30,004 bases of DNA, taken from the IMG/VR virus record IMGVR_UViG_3300032268_000658. One strand, written 5' to 3'. Numbering within the stretch: position 1 is the first letter of the stretch; each line of letters begins with the position of its first letter. Both the position numbers and the translations under genes were made by a program. The DNA is from a virus (taxonomy: Duplodnaviria; Heunggongvirae; Uroviricota; Caudoviricetes). Below are positions 9,885 to 30,004 of this stretch, piece by piece. Under the pieces are notes generated by a model that had not been told where the DNA came from, did no database searches, and saw only the letters and a list, made by a program, of their open reading frames with translations.

Positions 9885-12494
9885 TTATGAACATACTTGT
9901 ACGTCTAAAATTTGACCTATAGCTCCAATTTGTACGGCATAATTAGCACTTCCTTTACGCATTTTATGATAGTTAAATCCTCCATTATAAAAAGTTTCTA
10001 AAGCTGGTTCGTTATAGACATAGTTCCCTTCAACAGGCACTGAATCTTCAGCTGCCATGTACTTACTAGTAACTGGAGTATTAAATGGATTTCCGTTTGT
10101 ACAACATGATGACGCACTAGCGAATCCTGTTAAATCTGTAAGATAAGATTGACCTGGTGGTGGAGGGTCTGGTACGTACGGTGAAGGACATCCCGTTTGA
10201 TATCCACTAGTATATACCGATATGGCAGTTGATTGAGATGTATATGTTTTACCTTGAACAGTAAACGATGTACTAGCAGGATTACCAGGTATATACCCGT
10301 ACACTCTTTGGAATGGAGCCTCAAATGGTTCTACAAATTTTCCATTTGTATATGCCTGAGTGTAATAACCTTCGTTGTTTACACAATCATAGATACTATA
10401 GTATACTTGAGTTGTCTCTGGTGGTGTCTCTGCGTTTGGTGTATAATCCAAACTATTACTATTGATTGAATTACGTTGTGCATCTGCAACAACTAAACAA
10501 CAACTACATCCTTTAATCTGTGGTGTTACTAATTGTGCAAATATTTCTTGACTTAAGTTTGTTAAACAGTTGTCACTATATTGTCCGTCAGTTATTGATA
10601 AAGTTGAGTTGTCAACAATTATCACAGGTGATGAATTACTAATCTCTAATGTATAAGTGGTGGCACTACTCACAATTGTTTGTTCTGAAGGACTGCAGTT
10701 AGGTCTCGTTCCTGTTTCGCTTGACGATTCTGCAGCTGTTTGTGTTATCTCAACTCCTCCTTGACTGACTGTGAAATTTTCGCCTATATATCCCGTACCA
10801 GGTCCGTTATATGTTTTTGTAGACGATAACACTAATTCAAATTCTATAGTAACTCCATTAGGTAATTCAGGTGTTGTTACTACCTGTACTGTTGTTTGTC
10901 TTGAACTGCTATTAGGTTGTACAGAACTTATAACGTTATCCGTATTAGCACTTATTGTTAATTGATATGTCACAGGCGATTCGTCATATCCAACAGTAAC
11001 TGTCTGAGTTATCACATTTTCCGCGTAATCTTGAGTTATTACATTATACGCTTTTGGACTTAATCCATTAAAACTATTACTACTTTGATATGTAATTCCA
11101 CCATCAATAGAATATGAATAAGGAATTACACCATACTTTGCAGAAATAGTAATTGACCCGTTAGCATTAACTGTTGAATTACAACTACTATTTTGGACAG
11201 TTGCAACCGCCTGTAATGGTACTGACGCTGGACAATCTCCTTGATTCATTGTTACTGAATATGCAACTGTACCTCCAATAATTGCCCATCCATTATCAGG
11301 GTAGTAAGATGTTGTTGTACTAGCGAATATACCTCCTCCATTAGGGGTGTATGGCGTAGACATATCTGATTGAAGAATCTCCCAACGATTTCTAGTAATA
11401 GACCAAACAATATTAAGTTGTCCGTTGTATGTCCAAGTTGTCTTACCATTCTTATTACCACTACCAACAAATTGATAAGGTCCGATTGCTTCTGTTGAAG
11501 AAATTGCAATTAAACATAATTTAGGACAAATACCTGAAGGTGTTACTGTTGGAGTAACTGTTTGAGTTGGTGTTGCGGTTGGTGTTGGTGCAACTAATGA
11601 ACATACCGTACTTGCAGTATAATCACCGTAATAGTCGACCACAACAACTTCATAAGTACCTTGAGGTACTCCAACTAAAGTTTGATTTCTTTGCCCACCT
11701 TTCCAATAATATGAATAAGGACTTGTACCTCCCGTTATTGTTAACGACAAAATACCATCCAAAGATGTTGATGTTTTTGGTTGTGAAATTGGTTTACATT
11801 GAACTCCCATTTCAAATAGTGTGAACACATCACATTCATTTTTTAATTTAAGAACTTGGCTATTTGTTGGAGTCACATTAGGTGTTCTTGTAAGTGTTGG
11901 TGTTGTTGTATTTGTCGGTGTTATTGTAGGAGTTGTTGTATTTGTTGGTGTGTATGTTGGAGTTTGTGTTGGAGTAGGTGTGGGACAACTAACTGTTGCA
12001 ACATTATTTAATAATGTAACACCATTTGATAGACCTCTTTTAGTATAATCCATTGTCACCAATAGACCTACTTCAGTTCCTTGAATAAAATTACCACAAC
12101 AGTCAATGTAATAATAACTTCCTGTTGTAACAGCTTCTCCACACCTAATAGGTGTTGTTGATGGAGTTGGATTTGGTGTTCTTGTTTGTGTTGGAGTTGT
12201 GGTTAACGTTGTTGTTGGCGTTGGTGTAATTGGATTACTTGCTGTTAGTGTAGTAGTTGGTGCAGGCGTGGATGTTTCTTGAGGACATGGTACATTACCA
12301 CAAAAATCTCCTTGACTAAATGTTCCATCACCTGTTAATGTATCTTCAATGGCACAAGCAATATAATAACTACCTCCAGCATTAACAAACGCAGAATCGG
12401 AAAACCCGTTAAAGTTTGTCCAATAAATGGTACCAGAACCCATTGCTATGTAGGTATAAGAGTAACAATTTCCACAAGTTGTTGATAACGCCAT
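9885..12494 (-). CDS. Large Thr/Ser/Pro/Cys-rich probable virion surface protein with Pro-Thr tracts and two SprB-like repeats
   Basis: Three TP-rich tracts; SprB-like modules GILSLTITGGTSPYSYYW...GTYEVVVVD and NGSITISAKYGVIPYSYSIDGG...GLSPKAYNVITQD; many paired Cys; no signal peptide seen. Confidence 0.7.
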   Translation of the reverse strand: MALSTTCGNCYSYTYIAMGSGTIYWTNFNGFSDSAFVNAGGSYYIACAIEDTLTGDGTFSQGDFCGNVPCPQETSTPAPTTTLTASNPITPTPTTTLTTTPTQTRTPNPTPSTTPIRCGEAVTTGSYYYIDCCGNFIQGTEVGLLVTMDYTKRGLSNGVTLLNNVATVSCPTPTPTQTPTYTPTNTTTPTITPTNTTTPTLTRTPNVTPTNSQVLKLKNECDVFTLFEMGVQCKPISQPKTSTSLDGILSLTITGGTSPYSYYWKGGQRNQTLVGVPQGTYEVVVVDYYGDYTASTVCSLVAPTPTATPTQTVTPTVTPSGICPKLCLIAISSTEAIGPYQFVGSGNKNGKTTWTYNGQLNIVWSITRNRWEILQSDMSTPYTPNGGGIFASTTTSYYPDNGWAIIGGTVAYSVTMNQGDCPASVPLQAVATVQNSSCNSTVNANGSITISAKYGVIPYSYSIDGGITYQSSNSFNGLSPKAYNVITQDYAENVITQTVTVGYDESPVTYQLTISANTDNVISSVQPNSSSRQTTVQVVTTPELPNGVTIEFELVLSSTKTYNGPGTGYIGENFTVSQGGVEITQTAAESSSETGTRPNCSPSEQTIVSSATTYTLEISNSSPVIIVDNSTLSITDGQYSDNCLTNLSQEIFAQLVTPQIKGCSCCLVVADAQRNSINSNSLDYTPNAETPPETTQVYYSIYDCVNNEGYYTQAYTNGKFVEPFEAPFQRVYGYIPGNPASTSFTVQGKTYTSQSTAISVYTSGYQTGCPSPYVPDPPPPGQSYLTDLTGFASASSCCTNGNPFNTPVTSKYMAAEDSVPVEGNYVYNEPALETFYNGGFNYHKMRKGSANYAVQIGAIGQILDVQVCS

Positions 12495-12522
12495 TTGTTT
12501 TGGTTGGTTAGTTTTTAGTATT

Positions 12523-12538
12523 ACCTATAATTATAGGT
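12523..12538. promoter_or_regulatory. 16-bp perfect palindrome ACCTATAATTATAGGT in the intergenic region
   Basis: Self-complementary by direct reading. TATAGGTTT recurs 22 nt later (12532 and 12554). Function unknown. Confidence 0.35.
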
Positions 12539-12567
12539 TTTAAGTGTTTTTTGTATAGGTTTATTTG

Positions 12568-13275
12568 TTATGTGGTCGTAGGTGTTGGTGTTGGTGACGA
12601 GGTTAATGTTGGTGTTGGTGTAATTAAATTAGTACAAATGGCATAGTTAATAATTGTTCCTGATGTGTCTATCTGAACCGAATAAAAGAACCCTCCCCAA
12701 GCCATCAGAATCCATTTGTTCATTCCATTATAGATTGAATATAAAACTCCGTTATACAAATTAGAATAAACTTTAACTCCAATAACAGGGATTGTATTAG
12801 CTTGATTAATATAACAATATAGATTGTTAACACTCATTACGTCACCACAAGTGGTAGCTGAAGATGTGTAAGAATTTTGTCCAATTGCGTGAACTGAAAC
12901 AACAGGAGTTGCTGTAGGTGTTTGTGTATTAGTTGGCGTTGTTGTAATTGTGGTAGTTGGAGTTATGGTATTAGTTGGCGTTCGTGTAGGGGTTTGTGTA
13001 TTAGTTGGAGTATTGGTTGGTGTTTGTGTATTAGTTGGTGTAACACTGGGTGTCGGTGTTGGTGTAATAAGAATTGTATCAGTATCGATACATCCATTAA
13101 CATCTATTATTTGAATTATATAATCTGTTAAGTCGTAAGGACTTGAAACATCAAAACTAAATGGGAAAGTTGAAACTGTTGCGACGTAGACACAGCTTGC
13201 ACTCATAGAATCACAATAGTATATTTCTACAGGTGTATTTGCGGTTACTGATGTTATTGTTACTTGTTGTCCCAT
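12568..13275 (-). CDS. Pro-Thr-tract protein with an N-terminal three-Cys beta domain; probable virion protein
   Basis: Likely start MGQQV at 13275 (TAATG overlap with the upstream stop) rather than the track start 13308. TPTPTPSVTPTNTQTPTN tract and a C-terminal TPTPT tail. Confidence 0.75.
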   Translation of the reverse strand: MGQQVTITSVTANTPVEIYYCDSMSASCVYVATVSTFPFSFDVSSPYDLTDYIIQIIDVNGCIDTDTILITPTPTPSVTPTNTQTPTNTPTNTQTPTRTPTNTITPTTTITTTPTNTQTPTATPVVSVHAIGQNSYTSSATTCGDVMSVNNLYCYINQANTIPVIGVKVYSNLYNGVLYSIYNGMNKWILMAWGGFFYSVQIDTSGTIINYAICTNLITPTPTLTSSPTPTPTTT

Positions 13276-13493
13276 TATTGTACGAGTGTTGTTCCCGATA
13301 TGATACAATTATTTGAATCAATAACTTTTAACATATAAGAAACTGAATTATTATATGGCACAGGTATATCAAACACATATGGTATCACAGATGTTGTTGA
13401 AATGTAAAAACACCCTGTTCCGTTTGACTGACATATATAAACATCATAAGGAGACTGACCTGTTATACCATTAATTGTTACTTGTACCGCCAT
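13275..13493 (-). CDS. Small beta-rich protein (72 aa), paralog of the N-terminal domain of the downstream gene
   Basis: MAVQVTINGITGQSPYDVYIC...CFYI...PYVFDIP.PY...Y.LKVIDSNNC aligns by eye with MGQQVTITSVTANTPVEIYYC...CVYV...PFSFDVS.PY...Y.IQIIDVNGC. Confidence 0.78.
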   Translation of the reverse strand: MAVQVTINGITGQSPYDVYICQSNGTGCFYISTTSVIPYVFDIPVPYNNSVSYMLKVIDSNNCIISGTTLVQ

Positions 13494-13497
13494 ATTA

Positions 13498-13504
13498 ATA
13501 AATA
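13498..13504 (-). promoter_or_regulatory. TATTTAT motif, 4 nt before ATG 13493
   Basis: Minus strand GTATTTATTAAT-ATG. Confidence 0.55.
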
Positions 13505-13506
13505 CT

Positions 13507-14154
13507 TTAAAATCTATTTGTATTAGTGAGGAAATACTCCTCGTCTGTTTCTAAAAAAGTTTTTACGTTAAATACTGATTTTAATACTTTATCAGGATTA
13601 TTCAATATTCTATTAACTATTTTTTCTTTTCTACCAGGATATTCTTCATGTGTACCTTCAACCAAAAATTCTGTTAATTTGGTTATACCTTCTTTTTCTC
13701 TTAAATCACTAATCGATTTTTCTTCCCCTATTTGTTTTACGATATAAGACGTTTTAATGTATTTTAATCTATAATGGTTAAACTCAGGTGAAGTGATTTC
13801 TTGGTAGGAAACTTGTGGTAGTGGTTGTTCGAGCCACTGTATATCAATTAAAAATTTATATTTATTTAATGATAAATCATACATGGTATTCATATATGAT
13901 TCCAAAACATCTTGGTCTTTCAATGGACCTGTTATACAAAAATCAACGTCCCATGTTTTATTAAAATCATATAAAACTCCTCCCATCAAATACAACTCAT
14001 ATTCTTCAAGAATGTTTGTTGTGTTTTTAATTTCAATTAAAAATTCTTTAAGAACATTGTAAGATGGTCGATTCCAAATATTACTTGTTTTTACCTGTCC
14101 TCTTTGATAAAAAAAATATTGATTATTTTCTGCAATTTTTTCAAAAGTATTCAT
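13507..14154 (-). CDS. Putative DNA-polymerase-beta-fold nucleotidyltransferase
   Basis: LYLMGGVLYDFNKTWDVDF fits hG[GS]x9-13DhD; a third acidic strand LIDIQW follows. Confidence 0.6.
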   Translation of the reverse strand: MNTFEKIAENNQYFFYQRGQVKTSNIWNRPSYNVLKEFLIEIKNTTNILEEYELYLMGGVLYDFNKTWDVDFCITGPLKDQDVLESYMNTMYDLSLNKYKFLIDIQWLEQPLPQVSYQEITSPEFNHYRLKYIKTSYIVKQIGEEKSISDLREKEGITKLTEFLVEGTHEEYPGRKEKIVNRILNNPDKVLKSVFNVKTFLETDEEYFLTNTNRF

Positions 14155-14157
14155 ATA

Positions 14158-16410
14158 TTATGAACCTCCGCCTCCTCCTCCGCCTCCGCTTCCTCCTCCT
14201 CCACCACTTATTGATGCAGTATATGCGTCAGCACATACTTGACAGTCGGCAAATCCTTGAACTACAAATTTTGCAGTACTTGGTGTAATGTAATAATCTG
14301 TTACAATACCATCATAATTTAGAATAGTATAACAAAGACTACTTGTACTAACACTAACAATATTTCCTCCATCACTACCTGCAAATGCAAACGGTGCAAC
14401 ACTTGTTGGTGTATATATTGTTACGTTTTGTTCACTATCGTCACAAGCCCTTGCAGTGTATTTTCTATATGTCGGACAAGAAGAACATGATGTAATCGTA
14501 CTTACAAAAGGTTTTGATACAGTATAACTTGCATTTTGTACACCTACTTCACTATTGATTGTGATACAGAAATCATTAGTTCCATCATTACCTACTGCAA
14601 TTTCTCCAACTTTAACGTTGAAGTCTAAATAACTTGTTGTCGTACCAGCAACCCCAAATTCAAATATATTAATTGTAATTTGGGTAGGTTCAGAATAACA
14701 GCTCTTAACAATTATTGTTTGGTCGTTATCACATCTTGTTCCACTCCAATATTGATATTGTAGACATAATCCAATGCTAGCTGGTGTTTCCTCACAAGAT
14801 ACGCAAGTGGCATAAGTTATTGAAGGTGAGCCATCAAAATAGTTTCCTGAATACGTTACAGGTAATACCGTTGGTGGTGCAATGTATGTTGAATCAAATC
14901 TACCAATGTAGTTCCAACAAGTATTAAGTAAGTCTTTAAAAATTACTCCAGGTTGAGACACAAATGTCACTTTTTGTGTTTGAATCATTTGTGTTGGTAA
15001 CAAGTTAGGATATATTGGTGAACAACTTTCATACACATAAACATAATTAGGTGTTGTTGAAGGTGTTGGTGTCATTGTATGTGTTGGTGTATTAGTTGGT
15101 GTTGGCGTACTTGTTGGATTAGGTGTTGGTGGTGGAGTACTTCCAAAAGTTGACGTTGGCGATGGCGTTAATGTTGCGGTTGCAGTAATACTTGGTGTTG
15201 GTGTTTGAGAACTTGTTGGTGTAATAGTTGGCGTTGTTGTAATAGTTGGTGTTGGTGTTGGAATAATACTACAGTATTCACAAACCGAATAAAGTTGTAC
15301 GATATCTCCAACCACAGTATTTGATGAGAAGTTTGAATCATCTCTAGTATAACTAACACAATGGTATCCTCCGTTAAGTTCAACTAAAATAGTCATTCCA
15401 ATTACAACAGGAACTCCCATAAATGAAAGACCGTCTGTAACATAAAATTCATCACCTGATTGACAATCTGTTAATACCTTAACAGATACACAACTAAATG
15501 TTTCGTCTATCATTGGGAATGTTACTTGACCTCCTACAGGAACAGTATTTGTTAATGTAACTGAAGGTGTTAATGTTATTGTAGGTGTAACTGCTGGTGT
15601 ATATCCACTCATAACAAATGAAATACCCACTCCATTACAAATGTCACCAGTAGGTGTTGGTGTTGGAGTAACTCCAATAGTATCAACTATAAAGTTAATA
15701 TCATCACACGCGACACTTGGTGTTGGTGTTGGAAGTGGCTCCCAATCGCAGTCAAAATAGGCATTAAAGTCAAATGTTGAACAATTAACTTGAGTTGGTG
15801 TAGGTGTAGGGCAAACACCACTATAAAAATCATTTGCTGCAATATCAGGACAATCTGAATAACATGGTGTCGCTCCTTGTAAAACACAAGTTCCTCCAAG
15901 AGTATTAGATAAACACCAATAACTTTCCGTTACTCCACTATTATAATAAATTACGCCTGCAGTTGTTCCGTCACCAGAATAAGTTGGAGCTCCAGCATAT
16001 GTTGCTCCTTCAGTATAGTTGCCACTATAACCTGATAACGACGGCAAATAAGTATAGAAACAAAATACAGAATAACCACACCCTGATGGTACACTAAATA
16101 ACATAGGCATTAATTCCTCGGTTGGTGTCGGAGTTGGCGTTGGGCTAGATTCAGGAGTTGTTGTCGGAGTTGGCGTTGGAGTTGGTGTAGGACATTGAGT
16201 TTCTCCTCCCGTAAAAATTACTCCATTAGTTGAGTATATAGGACCTTCTTCATTATATGTAACCACTTTGGCAAATCCTGTAAATCCAGTACCTCCTACA
16301 ATACTATACACATATCCTTCAGTTAGTGTCCCTGGGATATTCTCAAATCTGAATAAGTTTGTGGAATCGTTACAGTCCTCAAATAAATAAATGTCGTATG
16401 GTTCGCTCAT
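14158..16410 (-). CDS. Large Cys-rich, Pro-Thr-tract probable virion surface protein with a Gly-rich C-terminal tail
   Basis: Several (PT)n tracts separating Cys-paired modules that end in CxxC (CEYC, CVSC, CSSC, CQVC); ends GGGGGSGGGGGGGS. TATTTAT motif upstream. Confidence 0.72.
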   Translation of the reverse strand: MSEPYDIYLFEDCNDSTNLFRFENIPGTLTEGYVYSIVGGTGFTGFAKVVTYNEEGPIYSTNGVIFTGGETQCPTPTPTPTPTTTPESSPTPTPTPTEELMPMLFSVPSGCGYSVFCFYTYLPSLSGYSGNYTEGATYAGAPTYSGDGTTAGVIYYNSGVTESYWCLSNTLGGTCVLQGATPCYSDCPDIAANDFYSGVCPTPTPTQVNCSTFDFNAYFDCDWEPLPTPTPSVACDDINFIVDTIGVTPTPTPTGDICNGVGISFVMSGYTPAVTPTITLTPSVTLTNTVPVGGQVTFPMIDETFSCVSVKVLTDCQSGDEFYVTDGLSFMGVPVVIGMTILVELNGGYHCVSYTRDDSNFSSNTVVGDIVQLYSVCEYCSIIPTPTPTITTTPTITPTSSQTPTPSITATATLTPSPTSTFGSTPPPTPNPTSTPTPTNTPTHTMTPTPSTTPNYVYVYESCSPIYPNLLPTQMIQTQKVTFVSQPGVIFKDLLNTCWNYIGRFDSTYIAPPTVLPVTYSGNYFDGSPSITYATCVSCEETPASIGLCLQYQYWSGTRCDNDQTIIVKSCYSEPTQITINIFEFGVAGTTTSYLDFNVKVGEIAVGNDGTNDFCITINSEVGVQNASYTVSKPFVSTITSCSSCPTYRKYTARACDDSEQNVTIYTPTSVAPFAFAGSDGGNIVSVSTSSLCYTILNYDGIVTDYYITPSTAKFVVQGFADCQVCADAYTASISGGGGGSGGGGGGGGS

Positions 16411-16417
16411 GTCTATA

Positions 16418-16503
16418 ATAAATAACCAGATTCTGGCTTTTTATACATTTTAAAAGATAGTTTTATTAAAAAACAAATAAAGACACCAATAATGTATATT
16501 TAT
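16418..16503. promoter_or_regulatory. Divergent control region with back-to-back TATTTAT motifs
   Basis: Minus-strand TATTTAT at 16424-16418, 7 nt before ATG 16410. Plus-strand TATTTAT at 16497-16503, 5 nt before ATG 16509. Short inverted repeat CCAGA-T-TCTGG at 16426-16436. Confidence 0.55.
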
Positions 16504-16508
16504 GAGAT

Positions 16509-16691
16509 ATGAAACTTCTCAAAACGATAGAGAAAATTATTAAAGAAGCTGAAGAGCAATACAACAATGCCTGTGAGAGTTGTGTACCTGTAGAAGAGCT
16601 TGATAGGTTAGAAAAACATTACAACGATTCTTTAAAACTTTTAAAAATGTATAAAAGTAACGAGGATAAAAAAATCACCATTCGCAAATAA
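16509..16691 (+). CDS. Small helical hypothetical protein (60 aa)
   Basis: Preceded by the TATTTAT motif; helical composition with CESC. Confidence 0.65.
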   Translation: MKLLKTIEKIIKEAEEQYNNACESCVPVEELDRLEKHYNDSLKLLKMYKSNEDKKITIRK

Positions 16692-16784
16692 TATAGATTT
16701 TATCGAATAAATCACTTATGTTTTTTAACAAAGTATGAGTTATGCCCAAAAACCAAATAAATCATGATTTTATTAAAAAAAAAT

Positions 16785-17540: not shown

Positions 17541-17547
17541 TTACATA

Positions 17548-20289
17548 ATGAGAGAAATTAACTCTTTTGATATTTTCGATACTTTACTAACAAGAACTGT
17601 TGAAAATCCGATTGATATTTTTGAAATTGTTGAAAAACAATATCCATATAAAAATTTTAAAAATTTACGACTTCAATCTCAGAATCAGTCAAGTCAGACA
17701 ATGGACGCAATTTATAATGAATTTAAAATGCTCACAAATGAATCTGATGAAACCATAAATAAGTTAAGAGAATTTGAATTAATTACAGAAATGGAAAATA
17801 CTATTCCAATTTTTAGTAATATTTCAAAAATAAAAGACGGTGATATATTTGTTTCTGATATGTATCTGTCTTCAAATGAAATACGTAAATTACTTGATTA
17901 TCACAATATAAACAAAAATACGGAATTATTTGTTTCATCTGGAGGTAAAGCAGATGGTACAATGTGGGAGACTCTTACACAAACATATAAAATTAATTCT
18001 CATTATGGGGACAATCATCATTCTGATATTATGATGGCTTCAAGATATGGAATAAAAGGGGTTTACACAGAATCCTATAAATTCACAGTTTTAGAATCAC
18101 ATCTTATTCAAAACAATGAATTTGAGTTATGTCAACAAATAAGGAAATTTAGGCTTGCAAACCCATATGATGAAAATACTATAGAATACAAAATCTACGA
18201 ACAACAAATTTCTTACAATATACCAATACTATTATTCATTTGTAATAAACTAAATGAAATATTAATAAACGAAAATCTTGATACGGTATTATTTCTTTCA
18301 AGAGATGGGTGTTTATTATTAAAATTGTTTTCTCACTTATACCCACAATATAAATCAATATATTTACATTCTAGCAGAATAATTAATAATGATTATACTG
18401 ATGACTATATTTCATATTTGAAAAAAAATTATGATAAAGATAGTTGTATTTTATTTGATTTACATGGTTCATTAAACAGCGGGAGAAAACTATTTACCTC
18501 ATTTTTTGAACACTTACCTAGAATATTCATTTTTGACCTTTCTTATATTGAAAATTATATTAGTGAAATAACATATATTACCAATTACTCAAATAAAATA
18601 GAGGAGTTTAATCCAGATTATAAAGGTACATTAATTCAATTTATAAATAATGAAGATGTACGCGCTCCGAGTGAATATCCTCTAAAATATGTTGATATAA
18701 TCCATAGTGTTTTTGATTATTTTATAAAATATTTTGATGTAAATTTTAAAAACAGTACAATATTAAATAATACGGATTTCTTTAGAAATTATTATATAGA
18801 AACCGTATGTACCTCTAAATCTATTTTAAAAAATCAATTTGAATTTATGAATCTTACTGAATTAGCAAATAAGTACAACTCAGACAAAGGAAACGAATTC
18901 CTATGTGCTCACCACTACACACCAATGTACGAACAGATATTCAACAATATATTGAATACTAAGTTAGAGAAAAAAGATTTTTCTACATTTGAACTGTTAG
19001 AAATTGGATTAATGATACCAAGTAATCAAGCGGCGATTCCATCATTGATGATGTGGAACGATTTCTTTAACAAGAACATCAATATTACAGGATTCGATAT
19101 CGATACATGTTTCTTAAAGTTTAACGAGGACCAAAATATAGATATTAAAATTGGCGACCAATCAAATGAAAATGATTTATTACAATTAAAAAATAAAAAT
19201 TATGACACAATTATTGATGATGGTTACCATGCATCAAAACATCAACAAATTACATTCAAAACATTGTGGGAAAATGTAAAACCAGGTGGATATTTTATTA
19301 TTGAGGATTTACATTATCAACCAACGGAAGAATCGTGTGTAAAAACAAAAGAATTATTTGAAAATTGGGGTAACAATAATTGGATAGAAACTGAATATAT
19401 TAACTCAGACGAAATACAAATTATCAAAAAGGATATAGAGTCAATTGAGTTCTATGATTCAAAATCAACCAGGTGGGGAGATTCTGTAAAAAACGCGTTT
19501 GTGTATGTTAAAAAGAAAGATATAATAAGTATTATGAATAAAAATAGTATGAATCAAATTATACGATATGAATTCCCAGTAAAATCACAGTCAGAAGAAA
19601 AATATGATTACACAGATAAATCCTCAATTTTAAATATCAGAAATATTTTAAGTAAAAATGGTAAGTATAATTATTGTGAAATTGGTTCTTATTTAGGAGG
19701 TTCATTAGTTCCATTTTTAAGAGACCCTCAATGTGAATATATACTATCAGTTGATGATAGAGGTAATATACAACCAGATGAAAGGGGTATTAGTTATGAT
19801 TACAGACACATTTCAACTCAAACTATGTTAGATACATTATCGAAACATAGTTTAGACTTAACAAAATTAGAAACATTTGATGGTTCTATCCATGAATTAA
19901 ATAAAAACATCAATAAATTTGATTTAGTTTTTATAGATGGTGAACATACCGATTATGCATGTTTTAGAGACTTTATATATTCTCAAAAATACCTAAAAGA
20001 AAATTCAGTTGTTATGTTTCATGATAGTACTTTAGTATATAAATCATTAAAAATGATACAAGAGTATCTGAAATGTAGTAATGTAGTTCATAAATTTATT
20101 AAAATCCCAAATTCATCAGTAACGTTTATTTTTTTTGGTGATTATATTTCTTTTTGTACTGAATTTGAATCACAAGATGTTGAAGATTTTTATAATAAGT
20201 CAGAAGAAGAAGTTCTTTACCATATTATACAAAATAGAGTAGAAGGAAATTTTAGAATTAAAAATAAAACATACACTATAGGTGGTTAA
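17548..20289 (+). CDS. Fusion: polysaccharide-locus HAD-like hydrolase plus two class I SAM-dependent methyltransferase domains
   Basis: SFDIFDTLL, FVSDMYL, HYGDNHHSD and FLSRDG (HAD, COG5610-like). SDKG...HHYT, LLEIG, IIDDGYH and IIEDL (MTase 1). CEIGSYLGGS, FIDGEHT and MFHDS (MTase 2, Methyltransf_24-like). Confidence 0.8.
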   Translation: MREINSFDIFDTLLTRTVENPIDIFEIVEKQYPYKNFKNLRLQSQNQSSQTMDAIYNEFKMLTNESDETINKLREFELITEMENTIPIFSNISKIKDGDIFVSDMYLSSNEIRKLLDYHNINKNTELFVSSGGKADGTMWETLTQTYKINSHYGDNHHSDIMMASRYGIKGVYTESYKFTVLESHLIQNNEFELCQQIRKFRLANPYDENTIEYKIYEQQISYNIPILLFICNKLNEILINENLDTVLFLSRDGCLLLKLFSHLYPQYKSIYLHSSRIINNDYTDDYISYLKKNYDKDSCILFDLHGSLNSGRKLFTSFFEHLPRIFIFDLSYIENYISEITYITNYSNKIEEFNPDYKGTLIQFINNEDVRAPSEYPLKYVDIIHSVFDYFIKYFDVNFKNSTILNNTDFFRNYYIETVCTSKSILKNQFEFMNLTELANKYNSDKGNEFLCAHHYTPMYEQIFNNILNTKLEKKDFSTFELLEIGLMIPSNQAAIPSLMMWNDFFNKNINITGFDIDTCFLKFNEDQNIDIKIGDQSNENDLLQLKNKNYDTIIDDGYHASKHQQITFKTLWENVKPGGYFIIEDLHYQPTEESCVKTKELFENWGNNNWIETEYINSDEIQIIKKDIESIEFYDSKSTRWGDSVKNAFVYVKKKDIISIMNKNSMNQIIRYEFPVKSQSEEKYDYTDKSSILNIRNILSKNGKYNYCEIGSYLGGSLVPFLRDPQCEYILSVDDRGNIQPDERGISYDYRHISTQTMLDTLSKHSLDLTKLETFDGSIHELNKNINKFDLVFIDGEHTDYACFRDFIYSQKYLKENSVVMFHDSTLVYKSLKMIQEYLKCSNVVHKFIKIPNSSVTFIFFGDYISFCTEFESQDVEDFYNKSEEEVLYHIIQNRVEGNFRIKNKTYTIGG

Positions 20290-20313
20290 CCTATAACAAA
20301 TTTTAAGAATTAT

Positions 20314-23300
20314 ATGAAGAATAAAAAATCCTATGTTTTGTATTCAACTGAAAACTATTTTGATATTGTACAAATGGCTTGCAAATCAATCAGAACGTTT
20401 AGTAATTTACCAATATTTGTTTATTTACTTAACTCAGATTTAAAAGTTGATATTGAAAATACAACAACAATAAATTGGAAATTTAATTTTTCAGGTATTG
20501 ATGATTATAAAAAATCTTCTGTAACAAATTACTACATTGATAGAAGTAGTCAAAAAATATATGAACTATTAATTCAAAGACCTTTAATAGTTAAGGATGC
20601 CTTAGAGAAATATTCTGATGTGGTAGCATATGTTGATAGTGATTCAATCGCAACACAATATTGTGACAGAATATTTGAAATGTATAATTCAAAACTTGAT
20701 TACCCTTATTTTGCAGAAGGTATATATGAATACCTACATATTAATGGTCGTGGTGGAGCTGAGACACGAGAGGATATGAGTACAACCTTAGAACATCCAG
20801 CTTGTGAACTATTCGGAGCAAACCAATACATCAGACAGAAATATAGACAAACAGGTTACTTCGTGGCTGGTCCTAACACCATAGATTTCTTAGAAGAATG
20901 GTCTTGGATGTGTAACCATCCTAAAGTACTAAAAGACTTTAAACATTACGCAGCATACCATGAAGAAACAATTGCCAACGTATTATTATGGAAATATGGT
21001 CATCTTGATGGATTACCTTTAATCTACACCAATGGTGATAACCAAACCATAGATAAAATATTCAAAGAAGAGTTATTCACAGGAAAACCAAGAAACATAG
21101 GTCCTTGGTTCAAAATTCCTGGTAAGGAAGAAGACTTATTATTTGTTCACGGTGAGAAGAGAGGATTTATTCAAGAAGAAATGATTGAAAGACTTAAGAT
21201 TAGAGCGGCAGGATTAAAATTCAACTACGATATTAACCCAAAAAATAATTGGGGTGATGTCTTGTCTCAGTTTTTATTAGAACATTATTCAGGTAAAAAA
21301 TTAAACAAAGATGATGTATTCTACTTTGATGATGCCGCACATATGTTGGATAAAAACGGAAAGATTGTTGGAATTGGTAGTTCAATGAAATACGTTAGAA
21401 AAGACGATTATGTTTGGGGCACTGGTTGTATTGATGAGCATCACGTTGGTAACAAACCAAGAAAGGTTTATTCTGTACGTGGTCCGTTGACAAGAGACGT
21501 GTTATTAAAAAGAGGTTGGGATGTTCCTGAAGTTTATGGTGACCCCGCTCTTCTATTCCCTCAGATTTATAATCCAACAATAGAAAAAAAATATAAGATT
21601 GGTTTAATTCCTCATTGTGTAGATTTTTACTCTCTTGATGGATTAAAATCAATTAACCATATGGAAGATATGGGTATTAAAATTATTAATGTAACTGCAG
21701 GTATTAATGAATTCATAGACCAACTTAAAGAGTGTGAAACAATTATATCATCAAGTCTTCATGGATTGATTGCTGCAGACGCTTATGGTATTCCAAACTA
21801 TAGAGTTAAAATTTCTAAGTTAGTTCATGGTGGTGACTTTAAATATAAAGACCATTATGCATCAGTTAAAAGAGAACACTATGAACCATTACAACTTACA
21901 GAATTAACAAACTTAGATGAAGTTAACTCATTAAAGTTTGAGACTGGTGATATTAGTTTAGTAGATAAGTTATTGGAGAACACTCCATGGAATGACCCTG
22001 ATTGTACATACATTCAGAACGCTCCAACTAAGAAGATTAAGTTATTGTTCTTAGCTCCGCATCTATCAACTGGTGGAATGCCAGGGTTTTTATTAAGAAG
22101 AATTGAACTACTTCAAGCTCATTGTCCTGAATTGGAAATCTTTGTTGTAGAACACGGATTCTATGGAGATGCATATGTTGTTCAAAGAAATAAGATTAAA
22201 GAAATATTACCTGAAAACCATTTTTGGAGTTTAGGTGATGATAAGATGAAATTAATTCAAATATTAAAGGACAATGAAATTGATATCGTTCACGTAGATG
22301 AAATGATTGAAGGTTTTGATAGTTTCAATAAGGTATCCAACGAATTAATGAAAGAACTATACTCCAACGAAAGAACTTGGAGAATGGTGGAAACTTGTCA
22401 TAACGTTTGGTTTGACCCAGGTGCTCACAAAATATATCATCCTGACGCTTACGCATTCTGTACCCCATACCATAAGGAAAAAACATTCGCAGATGTTCCT
22501 TCTTATAGTGAGGTATTAGAGTTCCCTATTGAAAGAATGTTTAGAACCAATGAAGAACAATTAATATCACAAAAGAAATTAGAATTAGATATCAATAAGA
22601 TTCACGTTATTAATGTTGGTCTTTGGACTTCAGGTAAGAACCAAGTTGAAGGTGTTGAGATTGCAAGATTACTTGAAAAGTCTAATCCAGAAATTCAGTT
22701 TCATTTTATTGGTAATCAAGCTCCAAACTTCAAGTCATATTGGGAACCTGTAATGAATAACTTGCCATCAAACGTTAAGATTTGGGGTGAGAGAAGTGAT
22801 GTATCGACATTCATGAAAGCTGCAGATGTATTCATGTTCAATTCAACTTGGGAATGTAATCCATTAGTATTGAGAGAAGCTGCTTCATATGGTCTTAAGA
22901 TTTTATCAAGAAATCTACCTCAATATATGGATATGTTTACACCATATATTACACCAATCGATGAAGATATTAACCAAACAAAAGATAGTCTATTGTCTTT
23001 AATTAATAACGAAAGAAGTTATGATTTAGAAATAGGTCAAGGTAAGAAATTTGCTTTGGACCACTTTAATTTTTATGAACTTATGAATAGTAAAGAACCT
23101 AAAAAACTAACAAAAATAAATTCAAACATTAAGATTACACAATACTTTGTTAATCAACCATTCTTGGAAATTACAGGTAATAGTGATGCAACGTTTGAAA
23201 TTAAATTCTTTGATGAATATGGAGTTTGTCATTACCACAATAAAACTGAATCAAATAGATGGTTTAAACTTAATAGAGAATACTTTACTAAGTGGCAAAC

Positions 23301-24189
23301 TAAAGTTTGGGAAGATGGAACATTAATCTATGATGATACTTTAGATTATAAAGGTAAGAAAGTCTTTATCTCATTCGATAGTGCGTCATTAGGTGATACA
23401 ATCGCTTGGATACCATACGTATTAGAATTTAAAAAGAAACATGAATGTGATGTTGTTGTTTCAACACACAAAAACTTCTTATTTGAAAATGTTTATCCTG
23501 AACTTGAATTTGTTAATCCAGGTTCTACGGTTAACGGTATTCACGGTATGTATACCCTTGGTTGGTTCTACAATGTTAATAAAGAACCTGAAATGCCAAA
23601 CACAATACCTTTACAACAAACAGCAACAAACATCTTAGGATTAAAATATGAGGAGATTCAACCAAGAATTGATTATAAAATTAATGACCGACCTTATGAA
23701 GGTAAGTACGTTACAATCGCAACCAACTCAACTTCAGGATGTAAGTTTTGGACTAAAGAAGGATGGCAAGAATTAATTAATCATTTACATTCATTAGGTT
23801 ATAAAGTAATTAATGTATCCAAAGAAAAAAACCCATTCAAAAACGCAGAACAGATTAAAGATACCTCAATGGAAAACACAATGAACGTAATTCATCATAG
23901 TGAGTTCTTTATTGGTTTATCGAGTGGTTTATCTTGGTTAGCTTGGGGTATGGGTAAAAATATTGTTATGATTAGTAACTTTACTGAACCTGACCATGAG
24001 TTCACCACAAACTGTACAAGAATTGTTAAACTTGATGTTTGTAACGGATGTTGGAATAGTCCGATTTACAAATTTGATAAAGGTGATTGGGATTGGTGTC
24101 CTGTTCATAAAGGAACCAAAAGACAATTTGAATGTCATAAAACAATTACATCAAAAATGGTGATTGACCAAATACAACACTTATTATAA
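20314..24189 (+). CDS. Four-domain glycan enzyme: GT-A-like domain, polysaccharide pyruvyltransferase, GT4, and Aah/TibC-type strand-loop-strand O-heptosyltransferase domain
   Basis: VAYVDSD and HEETIANVLLW (GT-A-like). NNWGD, VGIGS, SVRGPLTR, GDPALL, IGLIPH and SSSLHGLIAADAYGIP (pyruvyltransferase). APHLSTGGMP and NSTWECNPLVLREA (GT4). SLGDTIAWIPY...F, FIGLSSGLSWLAW and CNGCWN...WCP...QFEC (Aah/TibC, with the metal-binding Cys cluster). Confidence 0.88.
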   Translation: MKNKKSYVLYSTENYFDIVQMACKSIRTFSNLPIFVYLLNSDLKVDIENTTTINWKFNFSGIDDYKKSSVTNYYIDRSSQKIYELLIQRPLIVKDALEKYSDVVAYVDSDSIATQYCDRIFEMYNSKLDYPYFAEGIYEYLHINGRGGAETREDMSTTLEHPACELFGANQYIRQKYRQTGYFVAGPNTIDFLEEWSWMCNHPKVLKDFKHYAAYHEETIANVLLWKYGHLDGLPLIYTNGDNQTIDKIFKEELFTGKPRNIGPWFKIPGKEEDLLFVHGEKRGFIQEEMIERLKIRAAGLKFNYDINPKNNWGDVLSQFLLEHYSGKKLNKDDVFYFDDAAHMLDKNGKIVGIGSSMKYVRKDDYVWGTGCIDEHHVGNKPRKVYSVRGPLTRDVLLKRGWDVPEVYGDPALLFPQIYNPTIEKKYKIGLIPHCVDFYSLDGLKSINHMEDMGIKIINVTAGINEFIDQLKECETIISSSLHGLIAADAYGIPNYRVKISKLVHGGDFKYKDHYASVKREHYEPLQLTELTNLDEVNSLKFETGDISLVDKLLENTPWNDPDCTYIQNAPTKKIKLLFLAPHLSTGGMPGFLLRRIELLQAHCPELEIFVVEHGFYGDAYVVQRNKIKEILPENHFWSLGDDKMKLIQILKDNEIDIVHVDEMIEGFDSFNKVSNELMKELYSNERTWRMVETCHNVWFDPGAHKIYHPDAYAFCTPYHKEKTFADVPSYSEVLEFPIERMFRTNEEQLISQKKLELDINKIHVINVGLWTSGKNQVEGVEIARLLEKSNPEIQFHFIGNQAPNFKSYWEPVMNNLPSNVKIWGERSDVSTFMKAADVFMFNSTWECNPLVLREAASYGLKILSRNLPQYMDMFTPYITPIDEDINQTKDSLLSLINNERSYDLEIGQGKKFALDHFNFYELMNSKEPKKLTKINSNIKITQYFVNQPFLEITGNSDATFEIKFFDEYGVCHYHNKTESNRWFKLNREYFTKWQTKVWEDGTLIYDDTLDYKGKKVFISFDSASLGDTIAWIPYVLEFKKKHECDVVVSTHKNFLFENVYPELEFVNPGSTVNGIHGMYTLGWFYNVNKEPEMPNTIPLQQTATNILGLKYEEIQPRIDYKINDRPYEGKYVTIATNSTSGCKFWTKEGWQELINHLHSLGYKVINVSKEKNPFKNAEQIKDTSMENTMNVIHHSEFFIGLSSGLSWLAWGMGKNIVMISNFTEPDHEFTTNCTRIVKLDVCNGCWNSPIYKFDKGDWDWCPVHKGTKRQFECHKTITSKMVIDQIQHLL

Positions 24190-24860
24190 TGGATACAAAT
24201 AAATTTATATGGGAGCCTGAATGTCACGAAGGTTTTAAAGAAATTGTAGAACAAGAAATATTTGTAGAACGAATTTATGAAAAATTTTTTGAGGTTGAGG
24301 AGGGTGATGTGGTATTTGATGTTGGAGCTAGTTTAGGCCCGTTCACTTATTCAATATTAGAAAAAAATCCTTCTCATGTGTTTACGTTTGAACCAAGTTT
24401 TGAAGAGTTTAAAACTTTAGTATTAAACACCCGTCAAGGACCTGTAACACATATCAATAAAGGTATTTCAAATCATGTTGGAGAATTCCCATTTGAACAT
24501 GTATTTGACGTTGGTGATAGTGGAAAATATTATTCAACAACATTTAAGAAAGTAATTGAAGATTATAATATTCAAAAGATAGATTTTTTAAAATCCGATT
24601 GTGAAGGTGGTGAATACGATATCTTTAATGCCGAAAATCTATTATGGATTAAACAAAATGTTAGTAAGATTGCGGGTGAGTGGCACTTAGGAAATCCTGA
24701 ATTTAAACAAAAATTTAGAATTTTTAGAGATACTTACTTAAGACTTTTTCCTAATTTTAAAGTTAGGTCTTACAAAGGTTACAATATTGAAGAAAGACTT
24801 TGGACGGATGAGTTCATTGAATCTTTTAGTGAAATAATGATTTATATTGACAATAGATAG
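24189..24860 (+). CDS. FkbM-family methyltransferase
   Basis: VFDVGASLG, FTFEP, IDFLKSDCEGGE and IAGEWH. TAATG coupling with the upstream gene. Confidence 0.88.
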   Translation: MDTNKFIWEPECHEGFKEIVEQEIFVERIYEKFFEVEEGDVVFDVGASLGPFTYSILEKNPSHVFTFEPSFEEFKTLVLNTRQGPVTHINKGISNHVGEFPFEHVFDVGDSGKYYSTTFKKVIEDYNIQKIDFLKSDCEGGEYDIFNAENLLWIKQNVSKIAGEWHLGNPEFKQKFRIFRDTYLRLFPNFKVRSYKGYNIEERLWTDEFIESFSEIMIYIDNR

Positions 24861-24876
24861 TAAATTGATATTTTTT
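24847..24876 (+). promoter_or_regulatory. Candidate internal Flavobacterium-type promoter TTG-N19-TATTTTTT
   Basis: TTG at 24847-24849, 19-nt spacer, TATTTTTT at 24869-24876 (one mismatch to TAnnTTTG). Confidence 0.35.
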
Positions 24877-24893
24877 TAAAAACAAGATAAATT

Positions 24894-25766
24894 ATGAATA
24901 TAATATTTCAAATTAATGGTGGTATAGGCAAAGTAGTTGCCGCCACAGCAGTCTGTAAATCAATCAAGGTTAAGTATCCTGACAGTAAACTTATTGTAGT
25001 GAGTGGATACCCTGATGTATTTTTAAACAATCCAAATGTAGATAGGTCATTTGCTTTTGGTCAACAACAATATTTCTATCAAGAGTATATTGAAAATCAA
25101 GAGTTTATAGTCTTTGGTCATGACCCTTATTTAGATACCACACATTTAAAGTTTGAGGAACATTTAATAGAAACTTGGTGTAGAATATATGACTTACCTT
25201 TTATTCAAAAACAAGGAGAAATATTCTTAACACAAAGAGAAATTGATTTTTATTCTCAAAAATACATATCTGACAAACCTATATTTTTGTTACAAACTAA
25301 TGGAGGAGGAGATAGTAATGTAAAGTATTCTTGGGCTAGAGATATTCCACATAATATAGTGAGAGATGTCATAGAACAATTTAGAGCAGATTATAATATG
25401 GTTCATATTAGAAGAGATGACCAAATGAGTTATGAACATGCTATTGGTGTTAGTGATAACTTTAGAAGCTTAGTGGTACTTATTAACCTAAGTAGTAAAA
25501 GATTATTAATGGATAGCTTTGCACAACATGTTGCCGCAGCATTAAATTTATCATCAGTTGTATTATGGGTAGTTAATAGTCCTAAGGTGTTTGGGTATGA
25601 TATTCATACCAATATAATTGCCAATCCTGAAACTAAAAAGTCAGATATAAGAGCTGCTTATTTAAGTAAATATAATATTGGAGGAGAACTAGTTGAGTTT
25701 CCTTACGATAATGAAACTGAGATTTTTAATATTGGAAATATCTTTAAAGAATTTGAAAACAAATAA
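24894..25766 (+). CDS. GT9-like (ADP-heptose transferase family, GT-B fold) glycosyltransferase
   Basis: INGGIGKVVAATAVCKSIKVKYPDSKLIV, FLNNPNVD and LLMDSFAQHVAAALNLSSVVLW parallel the GT9 G.GD...P.A.I and DSG.MH.AAA motifs, but K replaces the usual D after GIG. Confidence 0.72.
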   Translation: MNIIFQINGGIGKVVAATAVCKSIKVKYPDSKLIVVSGYPDVFLNNPNVDRSFAFGQQQYFYQEYIENQEFIVFGHDPYLDTTHLKFEEHLIETWCRIYDLPFIQKQGEIFLTQREIDFYSQKYISDKPIFLLQTNGGGDSNVKYSWARDIPHNIVRDVIEQFRADYNMVHIRRDDQMSYEHAIGVSDNFRSLVVLINLSSKRLLMDSFAQHVAAALNLSSVVLWVVNSPKVFGYDIHTNIIANPETKKSDIRAAYLSKYNIGGELVEFPYDNETEIFNIGNIFKEFENK

Positions 25767-25768
25767 AT

Positions 25769-26590
25769 ATGGAAAAAATATTCTATCAAAGTTCTCTACC
25801 TAGAAGCGGTAGTACACTTTTACAAAACATACTAGCTCAGAATCCTGATATATATGCTACACCCACAAGTGGTGTACTTGAATTAATATTTGGAGCACGT
25901 GCTAATTATACTAACTCGCCCGAATTTAAAGCTCAAGATGTTGAACTTATGAAGAAAGGATGGCAGGCATTTGCTAAGAATGGTATGGATGCATTCTACA
26001 ACGCTATTACAGATAAGAAATATGTAATAGATAAAAGCAGAGGTTGGGGTGTACACTATGACTTTTTACAGTTTGTACAAGGAGGTGAACCTAAGATTAT
26101 TTGCATGGTAAGAGACCTTAGAGATATATTTGCTTCTATGGAGAATAACTTTAGAAAGTTTCCTGAAAAGCAATCAGACATTTTAGATTGGTCTAAAGGT
26201 CAAGGAACTACAGTACCTAAGCGTGTTGATATTTGGGCACAGTCTCCACCAGTTGGTATAGCTATTGAAAGACTTAGTGAGATATTTAGAACAGGTATAA
26301 ATGCTAAAATGCATTTTGTAAAGTTTGAGGACTTATGTTTATACCCAGATAATACAATGATACAACTATATCAATACTTAGAGATTCCTTACTACAAGCA
26401 TGACTTTGATAATATAGAACAAGTAACAAAAGAAGATGATGAAGTGTATGGTTCTTTTGGAGACCATACTATTCGTAAAAAATTAGAACCTGTAAGAAGT
26501 AAAGCTAAGGAGTTATTAGGTAAAGATGTCACTGATTGGATTTATACAAACTATGAATGGTTTTTTAAACAATTTAGATATACTAAGTAA
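25769..26590 (+). CDS. PAPS-dependent sulfotransferase
   Basis: 5'-phosphosulfate loop SLPRSGSTLL, IDKSR, 3'-phosphate motif VRDLRDIFAS, and VKFEDL. Confidence 0.88.
   Translation: MEKIFYQSSLPRSGSTLLQNILAQNPDIYATPTSGVLELIFGARANYTNSPEFKAQDVELMKKGWQAFAKNGMDAFYNAITDKKYVIDKSRGWGVHYDFLQFVQGGEPKIICMVRDLRDIFASMENNFRKFPEKQSDILDWSKGQGTTVPKRVDIWAQSPPVGIAIERLSEIFRTGINAKMHFVKFEDLCLYPDNTMIQLYQYLEIPYYKHDFDNIEQVTKEDDEVYGSFGDHTIRKKLEPVRSKAKELLGKDVTDWIYTNYEWFFKQFRYTK

Positions 26591-30004: not shown

Follow-up and report, generated by a model that had tools for sequence, protein, structure and literature searches.

A predicted protein O-glycosylation cassette beside a collagen-like fibre gene in an uncultured phage

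The 30,004 nt sequence IMGVR_UViG_3300032268_000658 (the window, meaning the whole stretch of DNA analysed) is a piece of a large uncultured double-stranded DNA phage. Its plus strand carries a block of genes for soluble enzymes at approximately 16.5-27.4 kb. To the right of the block is a minus-strand gene for a collagen-like fibre; to the left are minus-strand genes for three proteins with Pro-Thr (PT) tracts. The original prediction for this region was that the enzymes O-glycosylate the proteins on both sides of them. Analysis centred on 9885-30004 by an open reading frame (ORF) map and family scans (Pfam, NCBIfam, PHROG) finds every transferase gene named in that prediction in its place, together with the fibre with Gly-Thr-Ser (GTS) and solenoid repeats and the PT-tract proteins of 869, 246 and 750 amino acids (aa). 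The block is probably a phage-encoded cassette for cytoplasmic protein O-glycosylation and glycan tailoring, and the adjacent tail fibre is the most likely main substrate.

Enzyme block and fibre

The core of the block is a 1291-aa fusion protein with four domains (Table 1), the last of which is of Aah/TibC type. Residues 959-1289 score 288.9 bits against TIGR04414 (hepto_Aah_TibC; curated cut-off 200) over profile positions 27-373, and the domain matches the TibC structure 4rap at E=1.7e-51. By sequence it is a genuine Aah/TibC-family (BAHT) domain. The HMMER alignment was mapped onto the residues defined in the TibC structure paper (PMC4358343), and conservation was checked in 12 phage homologues (39-89% identity). 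Asp110, Thr226, Lys230 and Trp305 are identical in the window domain and invariant in all 12 homologues; in TibC, Asp110 is the catalytic base, Thr226 and Lys230 contact the beta-phosphate and Trp305 contacts the heptose (PMC4358343). The four cysteines of the iron finger (Cys339/342/358/370; C-x-G-C ... W-C-P ... F-E-C) are likewise kept and invariant in 12 of 12, and iron binding is predicted from them. The position of Pro300, the stereoselectivity determinant of TibC (PMC4358343), is a Ser in the phage domain, as it is in AAH.

Profile-to-PDB sequence searches give nothing significant for the first domain of the fusion or for the 290-aa protein encoded further along the block, and folds were therefore used for both. 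The model of the first domain (N-terminal 300 residues; predicted local distance difference test (pLDDT) 89.4) is matched by Foldseek to GT6 and GT8 glycosyltransferases (ABO transferases, alpha3GalT and LgtC; E~2e-7, template modelling (TM) score ~0.5), and there is an atlas lead to GT8/Nucleotid_trans. The 290-aa protein has no Pfam or NCBIfam match. Foldseek matches its model to WaaF 1psw (E=1.8e-9), a Veillonella GT9 enzyme, WaaC and TibC, the best folds having a TM score of ~0.5; its homologues in other phages sit in the apparent operon of the fibre. The fusion itself also matches Glyco_transf_9 in Pfam.

Profile annotation of the block finds GT2, methyltransferase, pyruvyltransferase, GT4, TibC-like, FkbM and sulfotransferase domains; for the pyruvyltransferase, GT4, FkbM and sulfotransferase domains the scores are all above the Pfam cut-offs. 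The GT2 gene had been taken as the first gene on the plus strand, but it is preceded by a conserved 60-aa ORF. At least five related groups (L002, L013-L024) have an ORF 56-82% identical to this one, and in each it opens the plus-strand enzyme block; the ORF has no family match (nothing usable in Pfam at E<=1) and may be a small regulator or assembly factor. The GT2 gene has no homologue among 80 related loci and is thus cassette-specific. The 913-aa protein has two methyltransferase domains, although the score for Methyltransf_31 (24.1 bits) is under its 27-bit cut-off. It also has a weak HAD-like DxDxT motif at the N-terminus (Hydrolase_like at E=0.17 only) and a middle region of ~300 aa without a match; one of the 80 related loci has a homologue. 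The FkbM-family methyltransferase right after the fusion is found in the same position in six related groups. The sulfotransferase contains, by eye, LPRSGST, a 5'-phosphosulfate-binding-like motif. A gene for adenosine 5'-phosphosulfate (APS) kinase (PF01583, 64.8 bits) adjoins the sulfotransferase gene in 13 related groups (e.g. L079:8556-9020, L026:14085-14516), which therefore appear to make their own 3'-phosphoadenosine-5'-phosphosulfate (PAPS); no APS kinase is seen in the window. By a crude hydropathy scan, the proteins of the block all lack transmembrane segments, and Pfam finds no flippase, polymerase, ligase or phosphoglycosyl transferase there.

The N-terminus of the fibre lies beyond the window end. 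The visible part has, in order, proline-free G-T-S/T triplets (~21 of them), a YadA/UspA1-like beta-roll head, two identical 28-aa repeats, more solenoid repeats and a C-terminal domain. This partial piece scores 26.5 bits against PF01391 (cut-off 27.2); full-length relatives score 312 and 200 bits. In the relatives, nearly all triplets are of the form G-[TS]-[ST], mostly with Ser at the Y position; proline is absent, and a single protein has up to 574 triplets. The solenoid region matches the UspA1 head 3pr7 (E=1e-11), the fibre also matches BclA 1wck (2.5e-4), and the C-terminus is ~29% identical to a P-SSM2 tail-fibre protein; for the non-collagen part, Pfam at E<=1 gives nothing usable.

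For a protein made in the cytoplasm, the fibre is unusually rich in Cys (45 in 729 aa), as are two of the PT-tract proteins (26 in the 869-aa and 32 in the 750-aa protein), and all of these are without signal peptides; the high Cys content hints at disulfide or metal cross-links formed after release. The 110-aa protein encoded directly downstream of the fibre has homologues of 29-32% identity at the same post-fibre position in L027, L052 and L062. Our guess is that it is a fibre accessory protein.

Table 1. Features of the window between 9885 and 30004
Feature	Position	Strand	Basis
869-aa PT-tract protein with SprB repeats, 26 Cys	9885-12494	-	PF13573, 31.4 bits
246-aa PT-tract protein, TTG start as listed	12568-13308	-	Homologues upstream of enzyme block, window's clade only
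215-aa protein between PT genes	13507-14154	-	Sub-threshold NTP_transf_2, 14.6 bits
750-aa PT-tract protein, 32 Cys	14158-16410	-	Homologues of 50-66% identity in window's clade
Conserved 60-aa ORF, opens block	16509-16691	+	Read from sequence; starts MKLLKTIEKI
GT2-family glycosyltransferase, 258 aa	16764-17540	+	PF00535, 30.5 bits (cut-off 23.3)
913-aa protein with two methyltransferase domains	17548-20289	+	Methyltransf_24, 51.2 bits; Methyltransf_31; phrog_21658 (methyltransferase)
1291-aa fusion (GT-A, pyruvyltransferase, GT4, TibC-like)	20314-24189	+	Pfam, TIGR04414, fold
Fusion domain 1: retaining-type GT-A, DxD motif Y106-D108-D110	20314-21213	+	Alignment, model, Foldseek
Fusion domain 2: polysaccharide pyruvyltransferase insert	21214-22008	+	PF04230 (PS_pyruv_trans), 57.9 bits (cut-off 25.3), residues 383-495
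Fusion domain 3: GT4 (GT-B) glycosyltransferase	22009-23118	+	PF00534 (Glycos_transf_1), 45.7 bits
Fusion domain 4: Aah/TibC-type (BAHT) predicted protein O-glycosyltransferase	23119-24189	+	TIGR04414; 4rap
FkbM-family methyltransferase	24189-24860	+	PF05050, 39.1 bits; TIGR01444, 55.2 bits
Putative GT9-like (GT-B) glycosyltransferase, 290 aa	24894-25766	+	Fold only; model pLDDT 72
Sulfotransferase, PAPS-type	25769-26590	+	PF13469, 58.0 bits; PF00685, 38.3 bits; both above gathering threshold
Second FkbM-family methyltransferase	26590-27387	+	PF05050, 54.6 bits; TIGR01444, 93.6 bits
110-aa protein directly downstream of fibre gene	27431-27763	-	No family match (Pfam E<=1, PHROG)
Collagen-like fibre, N-terminus beyond window end	27813-30004	-	Collagen, 26.5 bits on partial piece; UspA1 3pr7; BclA 1wck

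Linkage of enzyme and fibre in other phages

A scan of IMG/VR with the TibC domain finds at least 166 viral contigs with relatives. The best 80 loci (60-89% identity) were kept and dereplicated at 90% identity into 45 groups. The GT-A, GT4, TibC architecture is present in 76 of the 80 loci and GT4 accompanies TibC in 79; the pyruvyltransferase insert is found in only five of the 80 related fusions. A fibre was defined as a protein with at least 15 collagen-like (G-x-x) triplets or a member of the fibre clusters. Neighbours were counted downstream in the 30 groups with at least 6 kb of flank and upstream in 31 groups. A giant minus-strand fibre lies downstream of the fusion in 21 of 30 groups and upstream in 2 of 31, fibre-cluster members with cut-off N-termini included; with the stricter requirement of at least 15 G-x-x triplets, the counts are 16/30 and 2/31. 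Across the 45 groups, the fibre is the only recurrent large neighbour of the fusion. In many loci the order on the fibre strand is fibre, small ORF, GT9-like enzyme, sulfotransferase, APS kinase; the tailoring enzymes thus share the transcription direction of the fibre. A complete 321-kb relative has three other collagen-like genes (L081), ~40 kb away, and these are of the G-A-Q/G-P-T type.

The two features also occur together at the level of whole records. Among 24 viral records, 13 have both a TibC homologue and GTS stretches, two have TibC only, none has GTS stretches only and nine have neither (Fisher p=4e-5); this value overstates the case, since many of the records are fragments, the features are usually close to each other and the double negatives are one distant clade. 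Records rich in GTS matches are mostly TibC-positive. The reverse sample took contigs on the sole criterion of a (G-T-x)6 stretch; a TibC homologue is present in 15 of the 44, and in four of the eight that are at least 84% complete. Set beside the 166 of 2.9 million contigs in the first scan, which is a count and not a measured base rate, 15/44 looks well above chance. In prokaryotic assemblies, phage-like TibC homologues are near G-T-S collagen-like ORFs in 12 of 80 loci. Proteobacterial TibC homologues are followed by a protein of 1100-1740 aa rich in Ser, Thr and Gly, an unannotated ORF which is presumed to be the autotransporter substrate, as in the classical gene order of these enzymes. 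In the TibC family the neighbour is therefore likely to be the substrate.

The pair is kept when the genes around it change. The sister phage G008 has the closest backbone to that of the window (primase 92% identical, the RuvC-like and 732-aa proteins 83%, PT-tract proteins 60-65%). Between its PT genes and fibre it has a cassette of FkbM, a hexapeptide acetyltransferase, a Methyltransf_24 protein and a DegT-type aminotransferase (L168:13355-16001, L169:1-4466). Its 757-aa GT4-TibC protein, the TibC domain of which is 39% identical to that of the window, converges on a fibre with 347 triplets, with 28 bp between the genes. G009 (L171:2490-10650) follows the same pattern with two TibC-like genes and a fibre with 536 triplets. 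In G022, from a different clade, a collagen-like fibre with a Peptidase_S74 chaperone domain at its C-terminus is followed co-directionally by GT4 and then by a stand-alone TibC. The isolate Microcystis phage Mel-JY01 has a 1226-aa GT4...TibC fusion right after a Ser-rich protein (26% S+T) annotated as 'structural protein'. Since it persists through changes of cassette, architecture and lineage, the constant pair is a GT4 + TibC enzyme with a Ser-rich fibre. The co-occurrence of TibC with Ser/Thr-rich structural genes, proposed earlier as a check, is thus found for the G-[TS]-[ST] fibre across divergent phages, swapped cassettes and both fused and split architectures.

The tailoring genes of the sister phages differ wholly from those at the same position in the window, and this position behaves like an exchangeable glycan-diversity locus.

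Proposed pathway and alternatives

Late in infection, the TibC-like domain would attach the first sugar to the hydroxyl of Ser; it is Ser, and not Thr, that TibC and AAH modify (PMC4358343). The likely site would be the Y position of the G-T/S-S triplets, with Ser of the YadA-like beta-roll repeats as an alternative. The GT4 and GT-A domains of the same polypeptide would extend this sugar to a short oligosaccharide, which the cassette-specific GT2, the GT9-like enzyme, the pyruvyltransferase, the PAPS-dependent sulfotransferase and three or four O-methyltransferases would diversify and cap. The product in this phage would be an anionic, partly methylated glycan carrying sulfate, pyruvate ketal and methyl groups. 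The resulting fibre would be a glycoprotein shaped like a bottle brush. Its sugars could make a predicted proline-free triple helix stiffer, more soluble or more stable, protect it from proteases or contribute to host recognition.

Several points weigh against this pathway. The predicted glycosylation of the fibre rests wholly on gene linkage and homology; the linkage counts across groups are phylogenetically non-independent, and many of the records are fragments. The substrates of known BAHTs are beta-helical autotransporters and not triple helices. The phage domain misses three descriptive features of the BAHTs, namely Arg286, the beta-hairpin thumb and a stand-alone gene beside an autotransporter. 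Arg286 contacts adenine N1 and is the stated basis of ADP-sugar specificity; the R286A change abolished or strongly reduced TibC activity (PMC4358343). Its position is Thr in the window and Thr, Val or Ile in all phage homologues, never Arg. The thumb (Phe265, Val266), which builds the dodecameric ring of TibC (PMC4358343), is absent from the window-type domain, where the alignment has a gap; an insert occupies this position in G022, in Mel-JY01 and in the second copy of G009. Because Arg286 and the thumb are lacking, the donor, the oligomeric state and the capture of substrate may differ from those of TibC. In the L002-L012 sub-clade, which is nearest to the window and includes G001 and G004, the GTS fibre is ~46 kb from the fusion. 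Of the near-complete GTS-bearing phages sampled, about half have no TibC, so the fibre does not require it. The absence of membrane proteins from the block is still compatible with action on lipid-linked host glycans at the inner membrane face.

The two GT9-type enzymes are a hint of an ADP-heptose-like donor. GmhA and full HldE are found in none of five related records, three of which are complete. With no heptose pathway in these records and no Arg286 in any phage homologue, the mass shift of +192 Da per heptose that was expected earlier is not established and is not to be assumed.

It is also conceivable that the enzymes glycosylate the PT-tract proteins, either in addition to the fibre or in its place, and so provide several virion proteins with a mucin-like coat. 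Whatever the cassette, the window, G008, G009 and the L014-L024 groups share the gene order PT genes, sugar cassette, GT4-TibC, fibre; in G008 and G009 the tailoring genes lie upstream of the PT genes and are transcribed in the same direction. The 869-aa protein, which has a homologue of 60% identity at the same place in G008, is by its profile match an SprB-repeat, adhesin-like protein; it has no signal peptide or transmembrane segment, and this fits a virion decoration. The other glycosyltransferases of the block (GT2, GT4, GT-A, GT9-like) could have further acceptors. However, PT proteins flank the fusion in only 7 of 31 groups, all from the window's clade, and most TibC-bearing phages have none nearby. 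The complete 321-kb relative G002 has ~10 PT-tract proteins; four flank the locus, others are scattered 70, 73, 117, 181 and 250 kb away, and the copies at the locus are tandem paralogues. The tracts are Thr-rich (T:S ~5-7:1), whereas TibC and AAH act on Ser but not on Thr (PMC4358343). None of the PT proteins has a structural PHROG match or a match in the isolate phage collection; they match only low-complexity or unknown-function PHROGs (phrog_15511), mostly on the PT tracts and with no function named, and tblastn finds no match to the 869-aa protein in 50,697 phage records. Glycosylated PT proteins are therefore unlikely. Being scattered in a complete relative, Thr-rich and not identified as virion proteins, the PT linkers are treated as a general feature of this phage lineage and not as demonstrated substrates. 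Of the virion O-glycosylation system proposed earlier, a phage-encoded cytoplasmic glycosylation of protein is retained, with the fibre a very plausible substrate given its conserved linkage to the enzyme. The PT proteins drop out as substrates, and a particle-wide mucin-like coat goes beyond the evidence.

Glycans of the host could be the target instead. As an auxiliary host-takeover module, the block would remodel surface glycans (lipopolysaccharide, capsule, S-layer or gliding-motility glycoproteins), for example as a superinfection block, and its adjacency to the fibre would be coincidental. Pyruvyl-, sulfo- and methyltransferases and GT2, GT4 and GT9 enzymes are typical of polysaccharide loci, the PHROGs class of the GT4 part is 'moron, auxiliary metabolic gene', and the cassette varies between sister phages like an O-antigen locus; in some relatives the neighbourhood is one of accessory genes (2-oxoglutarate (2OG) oxygenases, radical SAM and GDSL genes). 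Such remodelling is less favoured, and we regard it as quite improbable, because the block has no lipid-carrier machinery (no initiating phosphoglycosyl transferase, flippase, polymerase, ligase or transmembrane protein) and because of the fibre linkage. This linkage survives cassette replacement and gene fission, and in other phages the tailoring genes are co-directional with, and directly after, the fibre gene, consistent with one operon. The conserved core enzyme belongs to a family known only as protein glycosyltransferases (PMC4358343). Another protein of the phage or host (capsid, tail tube or a host adhesin) could be the acceptor, with the fibre a mere neighbour. In mycobacteriophages, subunits of the capsid and the tail tube are glycosylated by the phage (Freeman et al. 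2023, cited in PMC12619734), half or so of the near-complete GTS-bearing phages do without TibC, and the fibre of G001 and G004 is far from the enzyme. In the 45 groups, though, the fusion has no consistent link to a capsid or tail-tube gene; the fibre alone recurs as a large neighbour, and this idea is given very little credence. Hypermodification of phage DNA (glycosylated hydroxymethyl bases) against restriction, a common role of phage glycosyltransferases according to PMC12619734, is the hardest to credit. Genes for a hydroxymethylase or for base modification are absent from the block; no role on DNA is known for the TibC family, pyruvyltransferases or sulfotransferases; and the linkage is to fibre genes, not to replication genes.

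If O-glycosylation of the fibre is correct, TibC-type modification of fibres would be widespread among aquatic phages (one subfamily by itself accounts for at least 166 IMG/VR contigs), virion glycosylation would extend beyond mycobacteriophages and the BAHT family would gain a second class of substrate. A protein-linked glycan with sulfate and pyruvate on a bacterial virus would also be indicated. The swapping of cassettes suggests that the glycan is under diversifying selection, which bears on host range, on adhesion to particles and mucus and on the stabilisation of proline-free collagen-like helices. A more far-reaching picture is speculative and on balance doubtful: freshwater-phage fibres would be proteoglycan-like, with an oligosaccharide on each of hundreds of GTS triplets; cassettes would be exchanged between sister phages as O-antigen loci are, giving sulfate, pyruvate ketal and O-methyl groups in this phage and an N-acetylated amino sugar in the sister phage, with glycan 'serotypes' tuning host recognition or evasion; and TibC would have an ancestral or parallel role on collagen-like substrates, glycosylation replacing proline in the stabilisation of the helix.

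Known systems and other features of the window

The closest enzymes are those of the E. coli pairs TibC-TibA and Aah-AIDA-I (TIGR04414; PDB 4RAP/4RB4; PMC4358343). The catalytic domain is homologous, with the same Asp, Thr, Lys and Trp contacts and four-Cys iron finger. In both cases a soluble cytoplasmic enzyme is encoded beside a long, repetitive, Ser-rich fibrous surface protein, and many acceptor sites are expected per substrate. TibC and Aah stand alone, whereas the phage domain is fused behind GT-A, pyruvyltransferase and GT4 domains. Their neighbour is a type Va autotransporter; that of the phage enzyme is a collagen-like/YadA-like fibre. Unlike TibC, the window domain has neither Arg286 nor the ring-building thumb, and it shares its Ser at position 300 with AAH.

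For a glycosylated collagen-like filament, the closest functional precedent, by analogy, would be BclA3-SgtA. SgtA, which is encoded next to bclA3, O-glycosylates the collagen-like repeats of BclA3 in Clostridioides difficile (PMC7157674). This system and BclA of Bacillus anthracis (PMC7157674) resemble the phage locus in having a glycosyltransferase gene beside a collagen-like gene, O-glycosylation of hydroxy amino acids in G-X-Y triplets and a hair-like surface filament on which the first sugar is extended; the phage glycan is predicted from genes. The enzyme is unrelated to TibC, the triplets are G-P-T with proline and not G-T/S-S, and the filament is on a spore surface and not on a virion. 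Mycobacteriophages also use phage glycosyltransferases to modify their own structural proteins in the host cytoplasm (Freeman et al. 2023, cited in PMC12619734). According to that source, the targets are the C-termini of capsid and tail-tube proteins and the glycosyltransferases are of other families, with no TibC-type enzyme, collagen-like fibre, sulfation or pyruvylation involved; modification there was shown experimentally, in contrast to the window system, which is predicted from its genes. The heads of the trimeric autotransporters YadA and UspA1 (3pr7) match the solenoid of the fibre in sequence. The phage fibre has no membrane anchor or secretion signal and is fused to a collagen-like stalk and a tail-fibre-type C-terminus. 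A literature search turned up no account of TibC-type enzymes in phages or of glycosylation on G-T-S fibres; the enzyme family is known, and its substrate class would be new. The window adds the largest tailoring set, a clean cassette swap between sister phages and evidence that speaks against the PT-tract arm.

Downstream of the fusion, members of the L002-L012 sub-clade have arrays of 2OG-Fe(II) oxygenase paralogues of the prolyl-hydroxylase type (PF13640; L003:14535-21052, L006:13670-20326, L005:9580-10167). The same region also encodes a radical SAM protein, a GDSL-like hydrolase and a protein of 750-910 aa with several Hint/intein-type domains. The oxygenases might act as prolyl hydroxylases on the PT tracts, but the window itself has no 2OG-Fe(II) oxygenase.

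The enzyme and structural blocks were said to diverge from a region with back-to-back TATTTAT motifs. These are present at 16418-16424 (-) and 16497-16503 (+), but the AT-rich window has 16 matches against 20.3 expected. The motif is not enriched, so it carries no weight and was rejected as a promoter element. The 215-aa protein between the PT genes has no Pfam, PHROG or NCBIfam match and no homologue in the 80 related loci. The C-terminus of the 750-aa protein (14158-14205, minus strand) is a poly-Gly/Ser tail, SGGGGGSGGGGGGGGS. Just left of the PT-tract genes is a minus-strand gene for a 732-aa protein (7665-9863) which is 83% identical in G008 and has no Pfam or PHROGs match (nothing usable in Pfam at E<=1).

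The left 9 kb of the window encodes SbcC/SbcD-like nuclease subunits, an exonuclease, a primase and a RuvC-like resolvase. Megablast against 50,697 phage records finds no DNA-level relatives of the 16-28 kb region, and the best matches of the primase to isolate phages (Flavobacterium and Microcystis phages) are only ~32% identical. An 8 kb contig binned with Sediminibacterium sp. (L189; JBBAJX010000043.1) has a match of 63% identity to the TibC domain. It is probably a phage fragment binned with its host, and gives a possible lead to a host among the Chitinophagaceae (Bacteroidota).

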